Assembly (NCBI RefSeq): GCF_017348835.2
Contig: NZ_CP071375.1
DNA: 64,000 nt
Reading direction: 5' to 3' (one strand)
DNA from: Escherichia coli
Lineage (GTDB): Bacteria; Pseudomonadota; Gammaproteobacteria; Enterobacterales; Enterobacteriaceae
A program made the translations under genes and the position numbers. Positions 626 to 61,590 of the stretch are shown here, piece by piece. Under the pieces are notes generated by a model. That model searched no databases. It had not been told where the DNA came from and saw only the letters and a list, made by a program, of their open reading frames with translations. Every line of letters starts with the position of its first letter. Position 1 is the first letter of the stretch.

Positions 626-2947
626 ATGATGAATGATTCGTTCTGCCGCATTATTGCGGGTGAAATTCAGGCGCGCCCGGAACAGGTTGACGCTGCCGTT
701 CGCCTGCTTGACGAAGGGAATACCGTGCCGTTTATCGCACGTTATCGTAAGGAAATCACCGGCGGTCTGGATGACACGCAGCTGCGTAATCTGGAAACGC
801 GTCTGAGCTATCTGCGCGAGCTGGAAGAGAGACGTCAGGCGATCCTCAAGTCCATTTCCGAGCAAGGCAAACTCACCGATGATCTGGCGAATGCCATCAA
901 CGCCACCCTAAGCAAAACCGAACTCGAAGACCTCTACCTGCCCTACAAACCTAAACGCCGCACCCGCGGGCAAATCGCCATTGAAGCAGGGCTTGAGCCG
1001 TTGGCTGACCTGCTGTGGAGCGATCCGTCACACACGCCAGAAGTCGCCGCTGCGCAATATATTGATGCAGATAAAGGCGTGGCAGATACCAAAGCCGCGC
1101 TGGACGGCGCGCGCTATATCCTGATGGAACGGTTTGCCGAAGATGCCGCGCTGCTGGCGAAAGTGCGTGATTATCTGTGGAAGAACGCGCATTTGGTTTC
1201 TACGGTGGTGAGCGGTAAAGAAGAGGAAGGGGCGAAATTCCGCGACTATTTCGATCATCACGAACCGTTGTCCACGGTGCCTTCTCACCGCGCGCTGGCG
1301 ATGTTCCGTGGGCGTAACGAAGGCGTACTCCAGCTTTCGCTGAATGCCGATCCGCAGTTCGATGAGCCGCCAAAAGAGAGCTATTGCGAGCAAATCATCA
1401 TGGATCATCTCGGCCTGCGCCTGAACAATGCTCCGGCGGATAGCTGGCGCAAAGGCGTGGTGAGCTGGACCTGGCGCATCAAGGTGCTGATGCATCTAGA
1501 AACCGAACTGATGGGCACCGTGCGCGAACGCGCGGAAGATGAAGCAATCAACGTCTTTGCCCGTAACCTGCACGATCTGCTGATGGCGGCCCCTGCCGGA
1601 CTGCGTGCAACGATGGGCCTCGATCCGGGTCTGCGTACTGGGGTAAAAGTGGCGGTGGTCGATGCCACTGGCAAACTGGTAGCGACCGATACCATTTACC
1701 CGCACACCGGACAAGCCGCAAAAGCAGCGATGACTGTTGCTGCGCTGTGTGAAAAGCATAACGTTGAACTGGTGGCGATCGGCAACGGTACAGCTTCCCG
1801 CGAAACCGAACGTTTCTATCTCGACGTGCAGAAGCAGTTCCCGAAAGTGACCGCACAGAAAGTGATCGTCAGCGAAGCTGGCGCGTCGGTTTACTCGGCT
1901 TCCGAGCTGGCAGCGCAGGAGTTCCCGGATCTCGACGTTTCGCTGCGTGGCGCGGTTTCTATCGCCCGCCGTTTGCAGGATCCGCTGGCGGAGCTGGTGA
2001 AAATCGATCCGAAATCTATCGGCGTAGGTCAGTATCAGCATGACGTTAGCCAGACGCAACTGGCCCGCAAACTGGACGCAGTAGTAGAAGACTGCGTAAA
2101 CGCCGTTGGCGTCGATCTCAACACTGCTTCTGTTCCGCTGTTAACCCGCGTGGCGGGCCTGACGCGCATGATGGCGCAAAACATCGTGGCCTGGCGCGAT
2201 GAGAACGGCCAGTTCCAGAACCGTCAGCAACTGCTGAAAGTCAGCCGTCTGGGGCCGAAAGCCTTCGAGCAGTGCGCGGGCTTCCTGCGCATTAACCACG
2301 GTGATAACCCGCTGGACGCCTCTACCGTTCACCCGGAAGCCTATCCGGTGGTGGAACGCATTCTGGCAGCAACACAGCAGGCACTGAAAGATCTGATGGG
2401 TAACAGCAGCGAACTGCGTAACCTGAAAGCGTCTGACTTTACTGATGAAAAATTCGGTGTGCCGACAGTAACTGACATCATCAAAGAGCTGGAAAAACCG
2501 GGTCGCGATCCGCGTCCGGAATTTAAAACCGCTCAGTTTGCCGATGGCGTCGAGACAATGAACGACCTGCAACCGGGTATGATCCTCGAAGGCGCTGTCA
2601 CCAACGTCACCAACTTTGGCGCGTTTGTCGATATCGGCGTGCATCAGGACGGCCTGGTTCACATCTCTTCATTGTCGAACAAGTTTGTGGAAGATCCGCA
2701 TACCGTGGTGAAAGCGGGCGACATTGTGAAGGTGAAAGTGCTGGAAGTGGATCTTCAGCGTAAACGTATCGCCCTGACTATGCGTCTGGACGAGCAGCCT
2801 GGCGAAACCAACGCCCGTCGCGGCGGCGGTAACGATCGCCCGCAAAACAACCGCCCGGCAGCCAAACCACGCGGTCGTGAAGCGCAGCCTGCCGGTAACA
2901 GCGCGATGATGGACGCGCTGGCGGCAGCAATGGGCAAAAAACGTTAA
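626..2947 (+). CDS. tex: Tex-like transcription accessory protein (YhgF), S1 domain at C-terminus
   Basis: 773-aa ORF; expected position after greB; S1-like C-terminal region and basic tail. Confidence 0.88.
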
Positions 2948-2964
2948 ACGCCCGGACTGGCCCC

Positions 2965-3008
2965 TAAACCTGCGCGATAAGGCGTTCACGCCGCATCTGG
3001 CAACGAAC
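2965..3008. repeat. REP-like extragenic palindrome downstream of tex
   Basis: gataaggcgttcacgccgcatc resembles the REP consensus family (GCCGGATGCGGCGTGAACGCCTTATC, reverse orientation). Confidence 0.45.
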
Positions 3009-3249
3009 GCCTTGTCTGACATAAAAGTGCCGGAGAATATCTCCGGCATATTTATTCCACAGCCAAACTCACAATATATTCCGTTAATATTTATCACTTC
3101 ATTAACAACTGAAACCTTAATTAAACATTAGCCAGTCCTGGTAATTCGCTATTCGAATTATATTTTCGCTGCGATATAACCTTGAGCCACATCAACATTG
3201 AGTCAGATTATTATTCAAACCAACATTCGCACACATTTTAAGTATTGCT

Positions 3250-3628: not shown

Positions 3629-5950
3629 ATGAAAAAATTAACCATAGGCTTAATTGGTAATCCAAATTCTGGCAAGACAACCTTATTTAACCAGCTCACT
3701 GGCGCACGTCAGCGTGTAGGTAACTGGGCTGGCGTTACCGTCGAACGTAAAGAAGGGCAATTCTCCACCACCGATCATCAGGTCACGCTGGTGGACCTGC
3801 CCGGCACCTATTCTCTGACCACCATCTCATCGCAGACCTCGCTCGATGAGCAAATCGCCTGTCACTACATTTTGAGTGGCGACGCCGACCTGCTGATTAA
3901 CGTGGTGGATGCGTCTAACCTTGAGCGTAACCTGTACCTAACGCTACAACTGCTGGAACTCGGCATTCCCTGCATCGTGGCACTGAACATGCTCGACATT
4001 GCCGAGAAGCAAAATATTCGTATTGAAATTGATGCTCTGTCGGCGCGTCTTGGCTGCCCAGTGATCCCGCTGGTTTCAACCCGTGGTCGCGGTATTGAAG
4101 CGCTCAAGCTGGCGATTGATCGCTATAAAGCTAACGAGAATGTGGAACTGGTGCATTACGCACAGCCGCTGCTCAACGAAGCAGATTCACTGGCAAAAGT
4201 GATGCCTTCCGACATCCCGCTGAAACAACGTCGCTGGCTGGGCCTGCAAATGCTGGAAGGCGATATCTACAGCCGCGCCTACGCCGGTGAAGCGTCGCAG
4301 CATCTGGATGCCGCCCTCGCCCGTCTGCGTAATGAGATGGACGATCCGGCGCTGCACATTGCCGATGCGCGTTACCAGTGCATTGCTGCCATCTGTGATG
4401 TGGTAAGCAACACCCTGACGGCAGAACCCAGCCGTTTCACCACTGCGGTAGATAAAATCGTGCTCAACCGTTTCCTCGGTCTGCCGATTTTCCTCTTTGT
4501 GATGTACCTGATGTTCCTGCTGGCTATCAACATCGGCGGGGCGTTACAGCCGCTGTTTGACGTCGGCTCCGTGGCGCTATTTGTGCATGGTATTCAATGG
4601 ATTGGCTACACGCTCCACTTCCCGGACTGGCTGACTATCTTCCTCGCCCAGGGCCTGGGTGGCGGTATTAACACCGTGCTGCCACTGGTGCCGCAGATCG
4701 GCATGATGTACCTGTTCCTCTCCTTCCTTGAGGACTCCGGCTATATGGCGCGTGCGGCGTTTGTGATGGACCGTCTGATGCAGGCGCTGGGCTTGCCGGG
4801 GAAATCCTTTGTACCGCTGATCGTTGGTTTCGGTTGTAACGTACCGTCGGTAATGGGCGCACGTACGCTTGATGCACCGCGTGAACGTCTGATGACCATC
4901 ATGATGGCACCGTTTATGTCCTGCGGTGCGCGTCTGGCTATCTTCGCAGTATTCGCGGCTGCCTTCTTCGGGCAGAACGGTGCGCTGGCGGTCTTCTCGC
5001 TGTATATGCTGGGTATCGTAATGGCGGTGCTGACTGGCCTGATGCTCAAGTACACCATCATGCGCGGTGAAGCGACGCCGTTTGTCATGGAGCTGCCGGT
5101 CTACCATGTACCACACGTTAAAAGCCTGATTATCCAGACCTGGCAGCGCCTGAAAGGCTTCGTTCTGCGTGCTGGTAAAGTGATTATCATCGTCAGCATT
5201 TTCCTGAGCGCTTTCAACAGCTTCTCGTTGAGCGGGAAAATCGTCGATAACATCAACGACTCGGCGCTGGCTTCCGTCAGCCGGGTGATCACCCCGGTCT
5301 TCAAGCCGATTGGCGTGCATGAAGATAACTGGCAGGCAACAGTTGGCCTGTTTACGGGTGCAATGGCGAAAGAAGTGGTGGTGGGTACACTCAACACCCT
5401 CTACACCGCAGAAAATATTCAGGACGAAGAGTTCAATCCGGCGGAATTTAACCTCGGTGAAGAGTTGTTCAGCGCGGTAGATGAAACCTGGCAGAGCCTG
5501 AAAGACACCTTCAGCCTTAGCGTACTGATGAACCCCATTGAAGCTAGCAAAGGCGACGGCGAAATGGGTACCGGGGCGATGGGTGTGATGGATCAGAAAT
5601 TCGGTAGCGCAGCTGCCGCATACAGCTACCTGATTTTCGTCCTGCTGTATGTACCGTGCATCTCGGTGATGGGAGCCATCGCCCGTGAATCAAGCCGTGG
5701 CTGGATGGGCTTCTCCATCCTGTGGGGGTTGAATATCGCTTACTCGCTGGCAACATTGTTCTATCAAGTCGCCAGCTACAGCCAGCATCCAACTTACAGC
5801 CTGGTGTGCATTCTGGCGGTTATCCTGTTTAACATCGTAGTTATCGGACTGCTGCGCCGCGCGCGTAGCCGGGTGGATATCGAACTGCTGGCAACCCGCA
5901 AGTCGGTAAGCAGTTGCTGCGCAGCCAGCACCACCGGTGATTGCCATTAA
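3629..5950 (+). CDS. feoB: Ferrous iron transporter FeoB (GTPase plus permease)
   Basis: ORF-track frame 3617.. trimmed to [25 protein letters not shown] (G-protein P-loop); 773 aa; polytopic C-terminal region. Confidence 0.92.
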
Positions 5951-6388: not shown

Positions 6389-7267
6389 ATGAGCAAAAAG
6401 CAGAGTTCCACCCCACACGATGCGCTGTTCAAACTCTTTTTACGCCAACCGGACACGGCACGCGATTTTCTTGCGTTTCATTTACCGGCACCCATTCACG
6501 CGCTCTGTGATATGAAAACCCTCAAGCTGGAGTCGAGCAGCTTTATTGATGACGATCTGCGTGAAAGCTATTCCGACGTGCTGTGGTCGGTGAAAACGGA
6601 ACAAGGACCAGGATACATCTATTGTCTGATTGAACATCAAAGCACCTCAAACAAACTGATCGCATTTCGCATGATGCGCTACGCCATTGCCGCAATGCAA
6701 AACCACCTGGATGCCGGACACAAAACGTTGCCGATGGTAGTGCCATTGTTGTTTTATCACGGTATTGAAAGCTCCTATCCCTATTCGCTGTGTTGGCTGG
6801 ATTGTTTCGCCGATCCCAACCTGGCAAGGCAGCTTTATGCCTCTGCATTTCCGCTGATTGATGTCACCGTCATGCCTGATGATGAAATCATGCAGCACCG
6901 ACGCATGGCGCTGCTGGAGTTAATTCAAAAACATATTCGTCAACGCGACCTGATGGGGCTGGTAGAGCAAATGGCCTGCTTATTAAGTAGTGGATACGCT
7001 AATGACAGACAAATCAAAGGGCTGTTTAATTACATCTTGCAAACCGGCGATGCGGTACGTTTTAACGATTTTATCGACGGCGTTGCCGAACGTTCACCGA
7101 AACACAAGGAGAGTTTAATGACTATTGCGGAAAGATTGCGGCAGGAGGGGTTTCAGAAAGGTATACGTGCTATTGCCAAAACCATGCTGGATGCCGGAGT
7201 CCCTCTTGAGGACGTTCTGCGATTTACCGGGCTGTCAGAGGAAGAATTGGCTGCGGCGAACCAGTAG
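6389..7267 (+). CDS. rpnA: Rpn-family recombination-promoting nuclease / transposase-like protein (YhgA)
   Basis: 292-aa ORF at the expected position after feoC; matches recollection of YhgA. Confidence 0.8.
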
Positions 7268-7283
7268 ACACTATCCCCTGCTT

Positions 7284-7329
7284 AAGTGCTACTTTATGCT
7301 ATCTTGCATGTAACACAAAGTAGCACTTA
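7284..7329. promoter_or_regulatory. 13-bp perfect inverted repeat (taagtgctacttt / aaagtagcactta); candidate operator for the downstream toxin-antitoxin pair, or yhgA terminator
   Basis: Arms at 7284-7296 and 7317-7329 separated by 20 bp; sits 10 bp upstream of the antitoxin start codon. Confidence 0.45.
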
Positions 7330-7338
7330 GGAACTGAT

Positions 7339-7608
7339 ATGCAGACAGTGAAATTACGGCAACAAGGAGGAGCCATGATCGTTACTATCCCACGAGATCT
7401 TGCCACCGATCTTGGCTAGTCACCGGGCACAGAGCTTACCGTGGAGAAAAAGGGCGATAGCGTTAATTTACGCGCAACCGGGCACAAACCGCGTGGGCGT
7501 CTTACCGTCGCGCAGTTGTTGAGCCAGATCGATGAAAGCGAAATTACGCAGCTAAATCAGTCCACAGAAGGATGGGCTGAAGGGAAAAAAGGTAATGAAG
7601 CATGGTAA
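7339..7608 (+). pseudogene. PemI/MazE/ChpS-like (AbrB/SpoVT fold) antitoxin interrupted by an in-frame TAG at 7417-7419
   Basis: Hand translation MQTVKLRQQGGAMIVTIPRDLATDLG*SPGTELTVEKKGDSVNLRATGHKPRGRLTVAQLLSQIDESEITQLNQSTEGWAEGKKGNEAW; SD agga upstream of ATG 7339; 3' end overlaps toxin start by 7 nt. Confidence 0.7.
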
Positions 7609-7970
7609 AGGCACGGACGCCACATCGTGGTGAGATCTGGTATTTTAACCCTGATCCGGTTGCCGGGCATGAACTTCGGGGTCCACATCATTGCATTGTG
7701 GTAACGGACAAAAAACTCAACAATGTTTTAAAAGTTGCTATGTGCTGCCCGATTACAACAGAGGCAAATGCAGCACGTTCCACAGGGGTGACGGTGAACG
7801 TCCTCCCCCATGATACGCAAACCGGTAACCTGCATGGCGTTGTGCTCTGTCACCAGCTAAAAGCTGTCGATCTTATTGCCCGTGGCGCTAAATTTCATAC
7901 CGTTGCCGATGAAGCATTGATTAGTGAGGTGATCGGTAAACTGGTGAATTTAATCGACCCACAACAGTAG
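7602..7970 (+). CDS. PemK/MazF/ChpB-family endoribonuclease toxin
   Basis: 122 aa; RGEIWYFNPDPVAGHELRGPHHCIVV...CCPITT...LHGVVLCHQLKAVDLIAR parallels MazF/ChpBK/PemK; no counterpart at this position in my recollection of K-12. Confidence 0.8.
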   Translation: MVKARTPHRGEIWYFNPDPVAGHELRGPHHCIVVTDKKLNNVLKVAMCCPITTEANAARSTGVTVNVLPHDTQTGNLHGVVLCHQLKAVDLIARGAKFHTVADEALISEVIGKLVNLIDPQQ

Positions 7971-7984
7971 CCCTGACTTATCAC

Positions 7985-9476
<1,492 letters not shown>

Positions 9477-16924: not shown

Positions 16925-19636
<2,712 letters not shown>

Positions 19637-57566: not shown

Positions 57567-58883
57567 TTAAGACTTCGTCGATTTCTCAAAGCGGCGCAGC
57601 AACTGATTTCCACGCTCAACGGCGGTATCCAGTGCCTGCTGTGGTGTCTTCTTACCGGTCCACACGCTCTCCAGCTCTTCATCCACAATCACGCGGATCT
57701 GCGGCATGTTGCCCAGACGCAGACCTTTGGTGAACGGCAACGGCGGCTTGTTCAGCATCTGACGCGTCGCGGTATCCGCCCCTGGGTTTTTCTCGTAAAA
57801 GCCCTGCTCACGAGTCAGGTCATACGCCGCTTTGGTGATTGGCAGATAACCGGTTTTCTGATGCCACTCGGCAGCATTTTCTGGCTTCGCGAGGAAGTCG
57901 AGGAACTTCGCCACACCTGTATACGTTTCTTTATCTTTGCCCTGCATCACCCACAGGCTGGCTCCGCCGATAATGGCATTTTGTGGCGCATCTTTCGCAT
58001 CAGCGTCGTAAGGCATCATGCCTACGCCGTAGTTAAATTTGGCGTACTCGCGAATGTTGGCAAGAGAACCGGAAGAGGCGGTCGTCATCGCGCAATCACC
58101 GTTATAGAACTTCTCGGTGGATTCATCCTTACGCCCGACGTAGCTGAAATCGCCCTTCTTGTTCATATCTTCGAGCATGGCGATGTGTTTCACCTGCTCC
58201 GGCTTGTTGAACTCCAGCACCGCATCCGTGCCGTCAAAGCCGTTGTTTTTGCTGGCAAACGGCAGACCGTTCCAGGCGCTAAAGTTTTCCAGTTGGATCC
58301 AGCCCTGCCAGCCGCTGGCGTAGCCGCACTTCATTCCGGAGGCTTTCAGTTTTGCAGAATAGTCCGCCAGATCCTGCCAGGTTTTCGGCGGCTGTTCCGG
58401 GTCTAATCCTGCTTTCTTGAAGGCGTCTTTGTTGTAATAGAGAACGGGGGTCGAGCTGTTGAATGGCTGGGAGAGTAAGTGGCCCGTTTTGCTGTCGGAG
58501 TAGTAACCGGAAACCGTCGGCACAAACTGCGACTCATCGAATTGAATCCCCGCCTCTTTAAACACGTCATATACCGGTTTAATGGCATTCGACGCCATCA
58601 TGGTGGCGGTGCCAACTTCATAAACCTGCAAAATAGCCGGAGCATTGCCGGTACGAAATGCGGCAATCCCCGCGCTTAAATTCTGTTCGTAGTTGCCTTT
58701 ATAGGTCGGTACAATTTTGTAATCCGGGTTTTCGGCGTTAAAACGTTGGGCCAGAGAATCCACCTCTTTACCCAGTTCCCCTTCCATAGAATGCCAGAAC
58801 GGAATGGTTGTCACTGCCTGTGCATTCCCCATTAACGCCAGTCCGAGCGCCAGTGCTGAAGCTGTATAATGTAACGGTTTCAT
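57567..58883 (-). CDS. ugpB: sn-glycerol-3-phosphate periplasmic binding protein
   Basis: 438 aa with signal peptide. Confidence 0.92.
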
Positions 58884-59001
58884 CGTTTATCTCTCTTGTT
58901 GTACCGAATGCGCGAATTCACGCGTTTTATGCTCGCGGGGTAACATGAAATGCTCGAATTACAGAAAAATAACTTTTTTGTTACATTTGTAAGATAGTAA
59001 G

Positions 59002-59030
59002 GTGTCAGAAAGATGACAAGGCGGTGACGG
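59002..59030 (-). promoter_or_regulatory. Candidate Pho boxes of the ugpB promoter
   Basis: Minus strand ccgtcaccgccttgtcatctttctgacac, repeated (C/T)TGTCA(T/C)-type half-sites. Confidence 0.45.
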
Positions 59031-59242
59031 TACGGGTGAGGGAAAATGGGAGAAGGGGCACGGATATCCCGAGAATGCACTGAAAAGAGGCGATTAACGG
59101 CCAGCTAATCGCCAGAACTCCTTACCATGAAGAGCAAAAATGGCAGCAAATTCTGCGTCCAGTTTTGCTGCCCGATGAGAGCTACATTTTTCAATTTTAA
59201 CAAAAGATTGCCGCGACACTGGTCTAACGGCAAAGAAGATTT

Positions 59243-59989
59243 TCATTGCACCACACTCTGCTTCAACCATTCATTGGCGGTCTTAATCCATTCCCGGTGG
59301 TGTTTTCTATAATGAGGTCTTGAGCGTTTAGCCGTATCAACTACAGCAACATACTGCTCGTTGGCTTCACGTAACCGACTCATTTTCGCCAACATTTCCG
59401 CATAGTAAATACGCGCCTGCGGGCCGGGGTAATAAGAAATCAATACTTCAAACTCGCTTTCCGCATCAGCGTATTTTTCTTGTGCGGCTAACGTTCTGGC
59501 AAATAACAAATGCCCGTCTGCCGACTGAAAATCAGGGTTATAACGCATCACATCTTCCAGCGTCTGCTGACAGGCGGCGAACTCCTGAATAGCAAACTGT
59601 GCCTGCGCCAGGCTTAGCATCATTGCCGCTTCATGGGCGAATATCCCGCTTAACGCCTGCTGATAATGGGGAACAGCTTCGTGATAACGCCCCAGGCGCG
59701 CCAGTTCATTAGCCAACGCATAATGGTTTTGATTCGTCTCGGCAATCGCCAGTTCTTCGGTTAATTTGCGCAGGTGGCGCTCAGGGTTGAGTTTGTCCTG
59801 CAGGCGCATCAGCAAAGTATGCCCGTGACGGTCAGCGCCCGTTTCAGGCAGCATCACTATGACGAAATACGCCACGCAGCCAATCACCGGAAAACAGAAA
59901 ATGATAAAAATCCAGTACCGCTCTTGTCCGGTACGGTAAGCGTGAATACAGCAAAGCAGTTCAAGCATGACAACAACGGCATAATGCAT
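59243..59989 (-). CDS. Membrane protein with PLDc_N-like N-terminal hairpin and TPR-like repeats, function unknown
   Basis: 248 aa; N-terminus ...RYWIFIIFCFPVIGCVAYFVIVM...; helical repeat region (ALANELARLGRYHEAVPHYQQAL...); not expected between ugpB and livF from my recollection of K-12. Confidence 0.55.
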   Translation of the reverse strand: MHYAVVVMLELLCCIHAYRTGQERYWIFIIFCFPVIGCVAYFVIVMLPETGADRHGHTLLMRLQDKLNPERHLRKLTEELAIAETNQNHYALANELARLGRYHEAVPHYQQALSGIFAHEAAMMLSLAQAQFAIQEFAACQQTLEDVMRYNPDFQSADGHLLFARTLAAQEKYADAESEFEVLISYYPGPQARIYYAEMLAKMSRLREANEQYVAVVDTAKRSRPHYRKHHREWIKTANEWLKQSVVQ

Positions 59990-60107
59990 GGGAGGGAACC
60001 TTTCCGTGGCAAATAAGTGGTCTGGTTTTAATCCTCCCGGTCAGTTGAAACAAGTCTGTATACGGACGAATAACCCGGCAGAACTTAGCTGCCGGGTTAT
60101 CGATAAT

Positions 60108-60821
60108 TTACCCGCCTAAATACGCACTTCTCACTGCTTCGTTCGCCAGCAGCGCATCGCCGGTATCGGAGAGCACAACATGGCCGTTTTCCAGCACGTA
60201 GCCGCGATCAGCGAGCTTCAGCGCCTGGTTGGCGTTCTGCTCGACGAGGAAGATAGTCATCCCCTGCTCGCGCAGCTGCTCGATGGTGTCGAAAATTTGC
60301 TGGATGATAATCGGCGCAAGACCGAGCGATGGCTCATCAAGCAACAACAAACGCGGGTTGCTCATCAGCGCGCGACCAATCGCCAGCATCTGCTGTTCAC
60401 CGCCGGACATGGTGCCTGCCCGCTGAACACGGCGCTCATGCAGACGCGGGAACAGTTCATACACCCACTTTATGCGCTCCTGGAACTGGTCGCGTTCGGC
60501 AAAGAAGCCGCCCATCGCCAGGTTCTCTTCCACCGTCATCCGCGAGAAGACGCGACGCCCTTCCGGGACAATCGCTACCGCTTCGCGCATGATTTTCGCC
60601 GTCTGCCAGTCGGTAATGTCTTTATCATCAAACACAATTCGCCCGCTGGTGGCGCGTGGATCGCCGCATAATGTGCCAAGCAAGGTGGTTTTCCCCGCCC
60701 CGTTCGCGCCAATGAGGGTGACAATCTCACCCTGATTGATATGCAGGCTCACCTCATGCAGCGCCTGGATTTTGCCGTAGTGGGCGCTGACTTTGTCAAA
60801 GGACAACATGACTTTTTCCAT
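60108..60821 (-). CDS. livF: Branched-chain amino acid ABC transporter ATPase
   Basis: Trimmed to MEKVMLSFDKVSAHYGKIQAL...; 237 aa; Walker A GANGAGKTT. Confidence 0.9.
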   Translation of the reverse strand: MEKVMLSFDKVSAHYGKIQALHEVSLHINQGEIVTLIGANGAGKTTLLGTLCGDPRATSGRIVFDDKDITDWQTAKIMREAVAIVPEGRRVFSRMTVEENLAMGGFFAERDQFQERIKWVYELFPRLHERRVQRAGTMSGGEQQMLAIGRALMSNPRLLLLDEPSLGLAPIIIQQIFDTIEQLREQGMTIFLVEQNANQALKLADRGYVLENGHVVLSDTGDALLANEAVRSAYLGG

Positions 60822-60822
60822 C

Positions 60823-61590
60823 TTATGCCTCACCTAAATAGGCACGGATCACGTCCGGGTTATTACGGATTTGCTCCGGCGTACCGTTTGCCAGCGGCGT
60901 CCCCTGATTGACCACGTAAATTCGGTCCGAAATTCCCATCACCAGCTTCATATCGTGTTCAATCAACAAGATAGTGGTGTTGTGATGATTGCGCAGTTCG
61001 GCAATCAGCTCATCCAGCTCTTTCGTTTCTTTCGGGTTAAGACCTGCCGCAGGTTCGTCGAGCATTAAAATCTCCGGCTGCGTCACCATGCAGCGGGCGA
61101 TCTCCAGACGGCGCTGGTCACCGTAGGCCAGGTTACTCGCCTGACGGTTGGCGTGTTCCAGCAAACCAATGCGCTCAAGCCAGGTGGCGGCGCGGTCGAG
61201 CGCTTCACTTTGGGCGCGACGGAAAGACGGCGTTTTCAACAGGCCTGAGAACAGCCCGGTTTTCAGTTGCTGATGCTGCGCCACCAGCAGGTTTTCAATT
61301 ACTGTCATTTCACGGAACAGACGCACATGCTGGAAGGTACGCACCACGCCCATGCGGGCGATTTGCTGCCCCGGCAAACCCTCCAGATGCTGATCGCGCA
61401 GTAAAATAGTGCCGCCGGTGGGTTTGTAGAATCCGGTCAGGCAGTTGAAGACCGTCGTTTTTCCGGCACCGTTAGGGCCGATTAACGAGACGATCTCCTG
61501 CGGGTACAGTTCGAGATTGACGTTGTTCACCGCCAGCAGGCCGCCGAAGCGCATCATCAGGCCGTTAACAGATAATAATGGCTGACTCAT
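60823..61590 (-). CDS. livG: Branched-chain amino acid ABC transporter ATPase
   Basis: 255 aa; Walker [10 protein letters not shown]. Confidence 0.9.

Follow-up and report, generated by a model that had tools for sequence, protein, structure and literature searches.

Membrane-tethered tetratricopeptide repeat (TPR) proteins such as LapB, YfgM and NlpI act as adaptors in bacteria. LapB (YciM) is essential and consists of one transmembrane helix, nine TPRs and, at its C-terminus, a zinc domain of the rubredoxin type; YfgM, CpoB (YbgF) and NlpI are periplasmic and have either a single helix as anchor, a signal peptide or a lipid anchor. MamA, which belongs to the magnetosome coat, and YrrB, from the cytoplasm of Bacillus, are soluble TPR proteins with five repeats. 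ClsA-type enzymes begin with two hydrophobic helices, the second of which carries a W-x7-P-x2-G-x3-Y motif and is followed by a basic stretch and then by two HKD/PLD catalytic domains. We analysed a 64,000-nt stretch of Escherichia coli DNA, referred to below as the window, in which a gene between the liv and ugp operons encodes a protein with an N-terminal hairpin of this ClsA type and with a TPR domain in the place of the catalytic domains.

Like LapB, the protein starts with a membrane anchor, continues with TPR repeats and lacks an enzymatic domain, and the docking at the inner membrane that we propose for it would be a further likeness. It differs from LapB in its two-helix hairpin, its four TPRs, the absence of a zinc domain and of a Cys-rich C-terminus, and its apparent dispensability. 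The combination of a single helix, about nine TPRs and a zinc domain that defines the LapB/YciM type was therefore not found in it, and its Pfam and NCBIfam matches included no link to LapB. Its anchor is unlike those of YfgM, CpoB (YbgF) and NlpI, and its similarity to these proteins is no greater than to any TPR protein. MamA and YrrB are 15–16% identical to it, lack the membrane hairpin and have an unrelated biology.

A catalogued but uncharacterised TPR gene lies between livF and ugpB

The ORF listing of the window contains an ATG-started ORF of 248 aa on the minus strand, downstream of livF (60108-60821, minus strand) and upstream of the ugpB promoter and ugpB (57567-58883, minus strand), so that all three genes are co-oriented. 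The gene and its putative ribosome-binding site are as follows.

59243..59989, minus strand: TPR gene encoding a membrane-anchored protein of 248 aa, called from the ORF, the RefSeq annotation, purifying selection and family conservation
59999..60005, minus strand: Shine-Dalgarno-like sequence GGAAAGG, 9 nt upstream of the ATG, read from the sequence

The start codon is consistent with the N-terminus of all relatives, which reads M-P/H-L/Y. The original prediction had placed a 248-aa ORF at 59243-59989 on the strand of livF, and its coordinates, strand and length all proved correct; the peptide that it quoted, WIFIIFCFPVIGCVAYFV, corresponds to residues 26-43. A mechanical ORF call extends livF to 60108-60833 by using a GTG start 4 codons before the annotated ATG (241 aa versus 237 aa), which is without consequence for the TPR gene.

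Over the TPR gene, the window matches E. coli strain PE164 at 100% identity; in that strain, RefSeq names the product 'tetratricopeptide repeat protein' (WP_053883615.1). WP_000558842.1 is another RefSeq entry with this name for the same gene. The orthologue in O157:H7 Sakai, ECs_4300, is annotated as 'hypothetical protein', occupies the same livF/ugpB locus and is 99.2% identical to the gene of the window. The gene is thus already known as an accessory gene catalogued in RefSeq from hundreds of genomes and in Sakai as ECs_4300, but it is uncharacterised. We found no dedicated Pfam or NCBIfam model for its product. Literature searches retrieved no paper that mentions ECs4300 or ECs_4300, and searches on PLDc_N or PF13396 retrieved nothing relevant to the protein.

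Transcription signals around the gene

Two hairpins and a short ORF border the TPR gene on its two sides.

60069..60101, minus strand: 13-bp GC-rich hairpin without a U-tract, directly after the livF stop codon; -22.8 kcal/mol, z-score -4.7
59079..59113, minus strand: intrinsic-terminator-like hairpin followed by CUCUUUUC (U-tract), from a terminator scan; -19.5 kcal/mol, z-score -3.5
59094..59246, minus strand: ORF of 50 codons, the ATG of which overlaps the stop codon of the TPR gene (ATGA) and which ends inside the terminator hairpin

The hairpin after livF contains a perfect 12-nt inverted repeat and could be a weak terminator or a stabiliser of the mRNA end. A search of the 118-nt spacer between livF and the TPR gene found no sigma-70-like promoter. 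Since the hairpin is U-less and no such promoter was found, partial read-through from livKHMGF into the TPR gene is plausible. The gene would be expressed at a low level, in part perhaps by transcripts that run past this hairpin. Its transcription would end at its own terminator, the hairpin located about 130 nt past its stop codon. No Rfam family was found in 58700-60300.

We considered whether the 50-codon ORF is a translationally coupled second gene, but its lack of conservation outside E. coli and of any family led us to reject this. The ORF is 99–100% identical among E. coli alleles and has no Pfam or PHROG match. The 127-nt stretch that holds it is absent from Escherichia sp. E1V33 and E. 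whittamii, and 68 nt of it are recognisable in E. albertii. The ORF is probably untranslated 3' sequence of the TPR gene.

The protein combines a membrane hairpin with a four-repeat TPR domain

An AlphaFold2 model built from an alignment of 28 sequences had a mean pLDDT of 88 and consisted of helices at residues 2-20 and 23-50 followed by 13 further helices. The model and the family alignment divide the protein into three parts.

59840..59989, minus strand: two-helix membrane hairpin, codons 1-50, from the AlphaFold2 helices, family conservation and the PLDc_N match
59780..59839, minus strand: basic linker of low confidence, codons 51-70 (pLDDT 54-71), ending in a conserved D/N-P69 helix cap
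59249..59779, minus strand: TPR domain, codons 71-247, a confident all-helical repeat in the AlphaFold2 model

The TPR domain is made up of an N-terminal capping helix, helix pairs at residues 86-112, 121-150, 157-186 and 191-222, and a basic C-terminal helix, and it contains an NPDFxSADGHLL[YF]AR motif that is conserved among the closer relatives. Tandem antiparallel helix pairs wound into a right-handed superhelix, the hallmark of the TPR superfamily, were found in the model. In Pfam searches, TPR_19 scored 38.7 bits (cut-off 25) and TPR_2 29.9 bits (cut-off 27), and all 28 of the aligned relatives matched TPR_19, TPR_14, TPR_16 and TPR_6. The same HMM searches, which had been proposed together with the claim that the remainder of the protein is TPR-like, thus bore out this claim, with both models above their cut-offs, and left PLDc_N below its gathering score.

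Searches with the family profile against PDB sequences returned generic TPR matches only and nothing on a ligand, and structure matches of the model were likewise limited to generic TPR folds without a hint of a ligand. The hairpin alone had no significant match among PDB sequences and hence no solved structure that would fix its topology. Taken together, the profile matches and the model show a predicted protein of two modules, a ClsA-type membrane hairpin and a four-repeat TPR domain, without a catalytic domain.

The hairpin is of the ClsA type and is the most conserved part of the protein

In the AlphaFold2 model the hairpin is tight, turns at the sequence RTGQER and is kinked close to P34. 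Two hydrophobic helices, the second with the W...P..G...Y motif, are what marks an N-terminus as PLDc_N-type, and both were found: helix 2 carries W26-x7-P34-x2-G37-x3-Y41, and the hairpin has H16 and P48 in addition. We translated the N-terminus of E. coli cls for comparison. Residues 26-44 of the TPR protein, WIFIIFCFPVIGCVAYFVI, and residues 40-58 of E. coli ClsA, WLLIIYILPLVGIIAYLAV, could be aligned without a gap, with 7/19 positions identical and 13/19 similar. H16, at the end of helix 1, is invariant in the family of the TPR protein and specific to this family.

The match to PLDc_N (PF13396) was 20.0 bits, against a cut-off of 23.3, with E=6.9e-4 and over residues 26-44 only; nine of 28 family members matched PF13396 at E<=0.01, the best of them at 2.2e-5. 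The resemblance to the N-terminal hairpin of cardiolipin synthases that had been noted from the sequence therefore holds at the level of the motif and does not extend to formal membership of Pfam PLDc_N. We also considered the protein as a cardiolipin synthase itself and rejected this, since Pfam detected no PLD/HKD domain and the protein ends at residue 248, with residues 71-247 all taken up by TPRs. The cardiolipin synthase model TIGR04265 covered only residues 22-46, at 11.6 bits (cut-off 290).

Among 140 family representatives, W26, G37 and Y41 were each conserved in 99%, H16 and P48 in 97% and P34 in 92%. The most conserved residues of the whole protein thus sit in the hairpin and not in the TPR domain.

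A compact family without conserved neighbours

A word-indexed search retrieved full-length relatives from E. fergusonii (94% identity), Citrobacter (75%), Pseudomonas (43%) and Exilibacterium (37%). A profile search that covered 1.84 billion cluster representatives returned at least 681 clusters (50% identity) at E<=1e-30, nearly all of 240-255 aa and matched end to end. The family was seen in Pseudomonas (alcaligenes/mendocina-type species), Xanthomonadales, Bradyrhizobium, Rhodopseudomonas, Thiotrichaceae and many proteobacterial MAGs. The ClsA-type hairpin joined to a TPR domain is thus a compact, conserved and uncharacterised family of Pseudomonadota. Two N-terminally extended homologues (P0166 and P0178) were examined as possible fusions and set aside; their extensions are most likely mis-called starts upstream of the canonical M-P-L start.

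For analysis of the gene neighbourhood, ORFs were called in 85 loci and their products clustered by BLASTP, which gave 27 locus groups. No conserved neighbour gene was found: none was common to more than 4/27 locus groups or kept a fixed position. The genomic context of these 27 groups therefore gives no clue to function, and outside the enterobacteria the gene behaves as a free-standing unit.

Membrane orientation

The mean number of Lys and Arg residues in the family was 0 at the N-terminus, 2.2 in the 8-residue turn between the helices and 4.1 in the 20 residues after helix 2 (residues 48-67), reaching 7.2 in the 35 residues after helix 2. In one homologue, RRRR follows helix 2 directly. 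By the positive-inside rule, the basic flank of a membrane helix stays on the cytoplasmic side; the larger number of basic residues after helix 2 than in the turn accordingly favours cytoplasmic termini, with a small margin between the two counts. On the strength of these charge counts we lean, weakly, towards a protein that would have both termini and the TPR domain in the cytoplasm.

In the opposite orientation the RTGQER turn would be cytoplasmic and the N-terminus and TPR domain periplasmic, and the protein would be an envelope adaptor like YfgM, CpoB (YbgF) and NlpI. The turn, with about two K/R in eight residues, does precede helix 2 in the manner of the n-region of a signal anchor, and the best NCBIfam match of the protein is the periplasmic CpoB/YbgF model TIGR02795, though at 31.5 bits against a cut-off of 90.1. 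Moreover, TMHMM-based predictions place the C-terminal domain of two-helix cardiolipin synthases, which have the same hairpin, in the periplasm, a location that has likewise been suggested for E. coli Cls (PMC4966929). Against a periplasmic TPR domain stand the excess of basic residues after helix 2 over those in the turn, the RRRR sequence of one homologue, the very basic C-terminal helix and the single Cys of the TPR domain (C140), which is unpaired. In Sec-dependent export, a high density of positive charge hinders translocation. We left the ClsA analogy out of the orientation call, because the published topologies are predictions only and disagree with the view that the ClsA C-terminal domain is cytoplasmic. 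On balance we regard a periplasmic TPR domain as rather unlikely, and proceed with the cytoplasmic orientation.

A proposed docking adaptor at the inner membrane

The best explanation of the data overall, which we favour with moderate confidence, is an ancestral gene for a dispensable TPR docking adaptor of the inner membrane, probably facing the cytoplasm. In such an adaptor, the hairpin would fix the protein in the inner membrane, and the TPR groove would be the place where another protein docks, to be held at or recruited to the membrane surface. That the most conserved residues sit in the hairpin argues against a purely passive anchoring role, and this conservation is left unexplained by the adaptor model.

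This conservation is one of the observations that would fit a lipid-linked role, with the hairpin recognising anionic-lipid or cardiolipin domains or docking to ClsA and the TPR domain bringing a client. A further one is the W-x7-P-x2-G-x3-Y motif common to the hairpin and helix 2 of ClsA; according to a review, a conserved motif whose function is unknown lies in the second hydrophobic region of ClsA (PMC9385802). The protein nevertheless lacks any HKD or PLD domain and falls far below the TIGR04265 cut-off, and in no locus was the TPR gene linked to cls or another lipid gene. We consider a lipid-linked role improbable and retain the docking adaptor as the preferred reading.

The gene is under purifying selection

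Compared with six other E. coli alleles, the TPR gene had dN/dS values of 0.05-0.19; those of livF and ugpB were 0-0.04, at similar dS. These values, together with the full-length homologues of 240-255 aa across Pseudomonadota, indicate more than a chance ORF. The gene was intact in 7/7 alleles examined and in 59 of 60 sampled annotations. These results show an intact chromosomal gene under purifying selection.

Disrupted copies were seen in two places. The copy of the E. albertii type strain NBRC 107761 (locus 5001-5744) is interrupted, with a longest ORF of 202 aa, and that of E. coli ECO2947 (locus 1146-3153) is split by an IS3-family element; the two are independent inactivations of the gene. 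From these disruptions and from the loss of the gene in about 85% of E. coli, described below, we infer that it is conditionally dispensable.

A functionless relic, decaying slowly in Escherichia and surviving by chance only, would account for such disruptions, for repeated loss of the gene or wide spread of a deletion allele, for its low codon adaptation and for a dN/dS several-fold above that of the flanking genes. This dN/dS is, however, far from neutral, almost all examined alleles and sampled annotations are intact, and the family has kept its length and motifs across Pseudomonadota. We therefore give this alternative little credence, slightly less than the lipid-linked role, and keep to a gene maintained by selection.

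The two halves of the gene differ in their divergence from some alleles. Codons 1-125 (59615-59989) share only 90.7–91.7% identity with the alleles of E. coli 100416, M6 and UTME-3, to which the C-terminal half, both spacers, livF and ugpB are 95–100% identical; in its N-terminal half the gene is further from these three strains than from E. whittamii. The pattern points to recombination with a breakpoint within the gene, or else to an allele class of long standing.

The gene is ancestral and was lost from most E. coli lineages

Comparison of the spacers bore out the premise of the original prediction that K-12 has no gene at this position. The K-12 spacer between ugpB and livF is 398 bp long. 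Only its first 183 bp, on the side of the ugpB promoter, match the window, and the remaining 215 bp, which reach the base beside the livF stop codon, are unrelated to it. Alignment to K-12 thus delimits the following segment.

59067..60107, no strand assigned: polymorphic segment of 1,041 bp, in the place of which K-12 has an unrelated 215 bp

We take the 215-bp segment of K-12 to be a small hairpin together with sequences recognisable as REP (palindromic unit) elements. The segment matched a median of 11 places per genome, in agreement with this reading.

Among 5,426 complete E. coli genomes, the TPR gene was present in 659 (about 12%) and the K-12-type REP allele, counted where at least 80% of the segment was covered, in 4,630 (about 85%). 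All 659 copies were chromosomal, none being found on a plasmid in the 5,426 genomes, and every copy inspected lay at the livF-ugpB locus. The carriers include O157:H7, O55:H7, O145:H28 and SMS-3-5, and their copies of the gene are 94–100% identical in nucleotide sequence. About 137 of the 5,426 genomes had neither the TPR gene nor the K-12 segment at >=80% coverage; they may have a third arrangement, with a different REP copy number or another insert.

We examined synteny in outgroups by scanning a single genome from each species. In Escherichia sp. E1V33, E. whittamii and E. albertii, the TPR gene has livF upstream and the ugpB promoter and ugpB downstream. The order livF-gene-ugpB was also found in Citrobacter sp. 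NCU1 and in a Pseudocitrobacter MAG, and in Escherichia sp. MOD1-EC7003 livF lies upstream of the gene, at which the contig ends. C. freundii keeps the order with four extra ORFs inserted after the TPR gene. No Salmonella, Klebsiella or Enterobacter locus was present among the best 80 matches of the genome scan.

The extra ORFs of C. freundii (locus 6850-8324), which lie on the ugpB side of the TPR gene, encode proteins of 93 aa and 135 aa without a family, a PhdYeFM antitoxin and a Fic/Doc protein. This spacer thus appears to take up small cargo recurrently. Elsewhere in the liv region, at 16978-17778 of the O157:H7 Sakai locus and past the end of the window, an acetyltransferase and antitoxin pair (ECs_4307 and ECs_4308) lies between panM and the next livK-annotated gene. 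K-12 presumably lacks this pair, which would then be another small accessory insert in the liv region.

Between E. coli alleles, dS was 0.03-0.22 for the TPR gene, 0.06-0.23 for livF and 0.08-0.19 for ugpB. The gene and its flanks are accordingly of the same age. Neither direct nor inverted repeats were found at the edges of the segment (59066/60107), and the ORF listing contains no transposase, integrase or other mobility gene within it. The protein had no PHROG or PADLOC match, the PADLOC defence models being searched at E<=0.1. Mobility genes, boundary repeats, a tRNA or other att site and a patchy, non-syntenic spread are the marks of a mobile element or genomic island, and by these marks the segment is not one. 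GC3 of the TPR gene was 0.53, compared with 0.64-0.74 in the flanking liv and ugp genes, and its codon choice was the least typical of the eight genes compared. The proposed check of GC content and codon usage did therefore reveal a GC3 below that of the flanks, and this fits weak expression or an old acquisition, before the split of Escherichia and Citrobacter, and not a recent one.

These results show that the ancestor shared by Escherichia and Citrobacter already had the TPR gene in the livF-ugpB spacer, and that the gene has been lost from most E. coli lineages, among them K-12, which have REP-type repeats in its place. The suggestion of a strain-specific insertion was not borne out, since the synteny comparison proposed for it revealed the same slot in other species and genera and the dS is like that of the flanks. 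A recent insertion of foreign DNA between livF and ugpB could appeal to the absence of the gene from K-12 and most other E. coli, to its low GC3 and untypical codons, and to the extra cargo, including a Phd/Fic(Doc) pair, in the C. freundii spacer, but it is very improbable in view of the syntenic copies in other Escherichia species, cryptic Escherichia clades, Citrobacter and Pseudocitrobacter, the dS equal to that of flanking core genes, E. coli alleles that differ by up to 6%, the absence of flanking repeats, integrase, transposase and tRNA, and the lack of plasmid copies and of PHROG or PADLOC matches.

Discussion

The original prediction thus stands for the ORF, its absence from K-12, the cardiolipin-synthase-type hairpin, the TPR-like remainder and the lack of an assigned function, and fails for the strain-specific insertion. 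Synteny in outgroups, a flank-like dS and segment edges without repeats give the event the reverse polarity: K-12 lost the TPR gene, and the present strain did not gain it. The livF-ugpB spacer of E. coli consequently exists in two main forms, one with the TPR gene and one with REP repeats. Natural isolates of E. coli differ by exactly this gene, so a phenotype could be sought cheaply. If the lipid-linked reading were true, it would provide a first function for the conserved motif in the N-terminus of cardiolipin synthases, and the presence/absence polymorphism of E. coli would be a ready-made genetic test.
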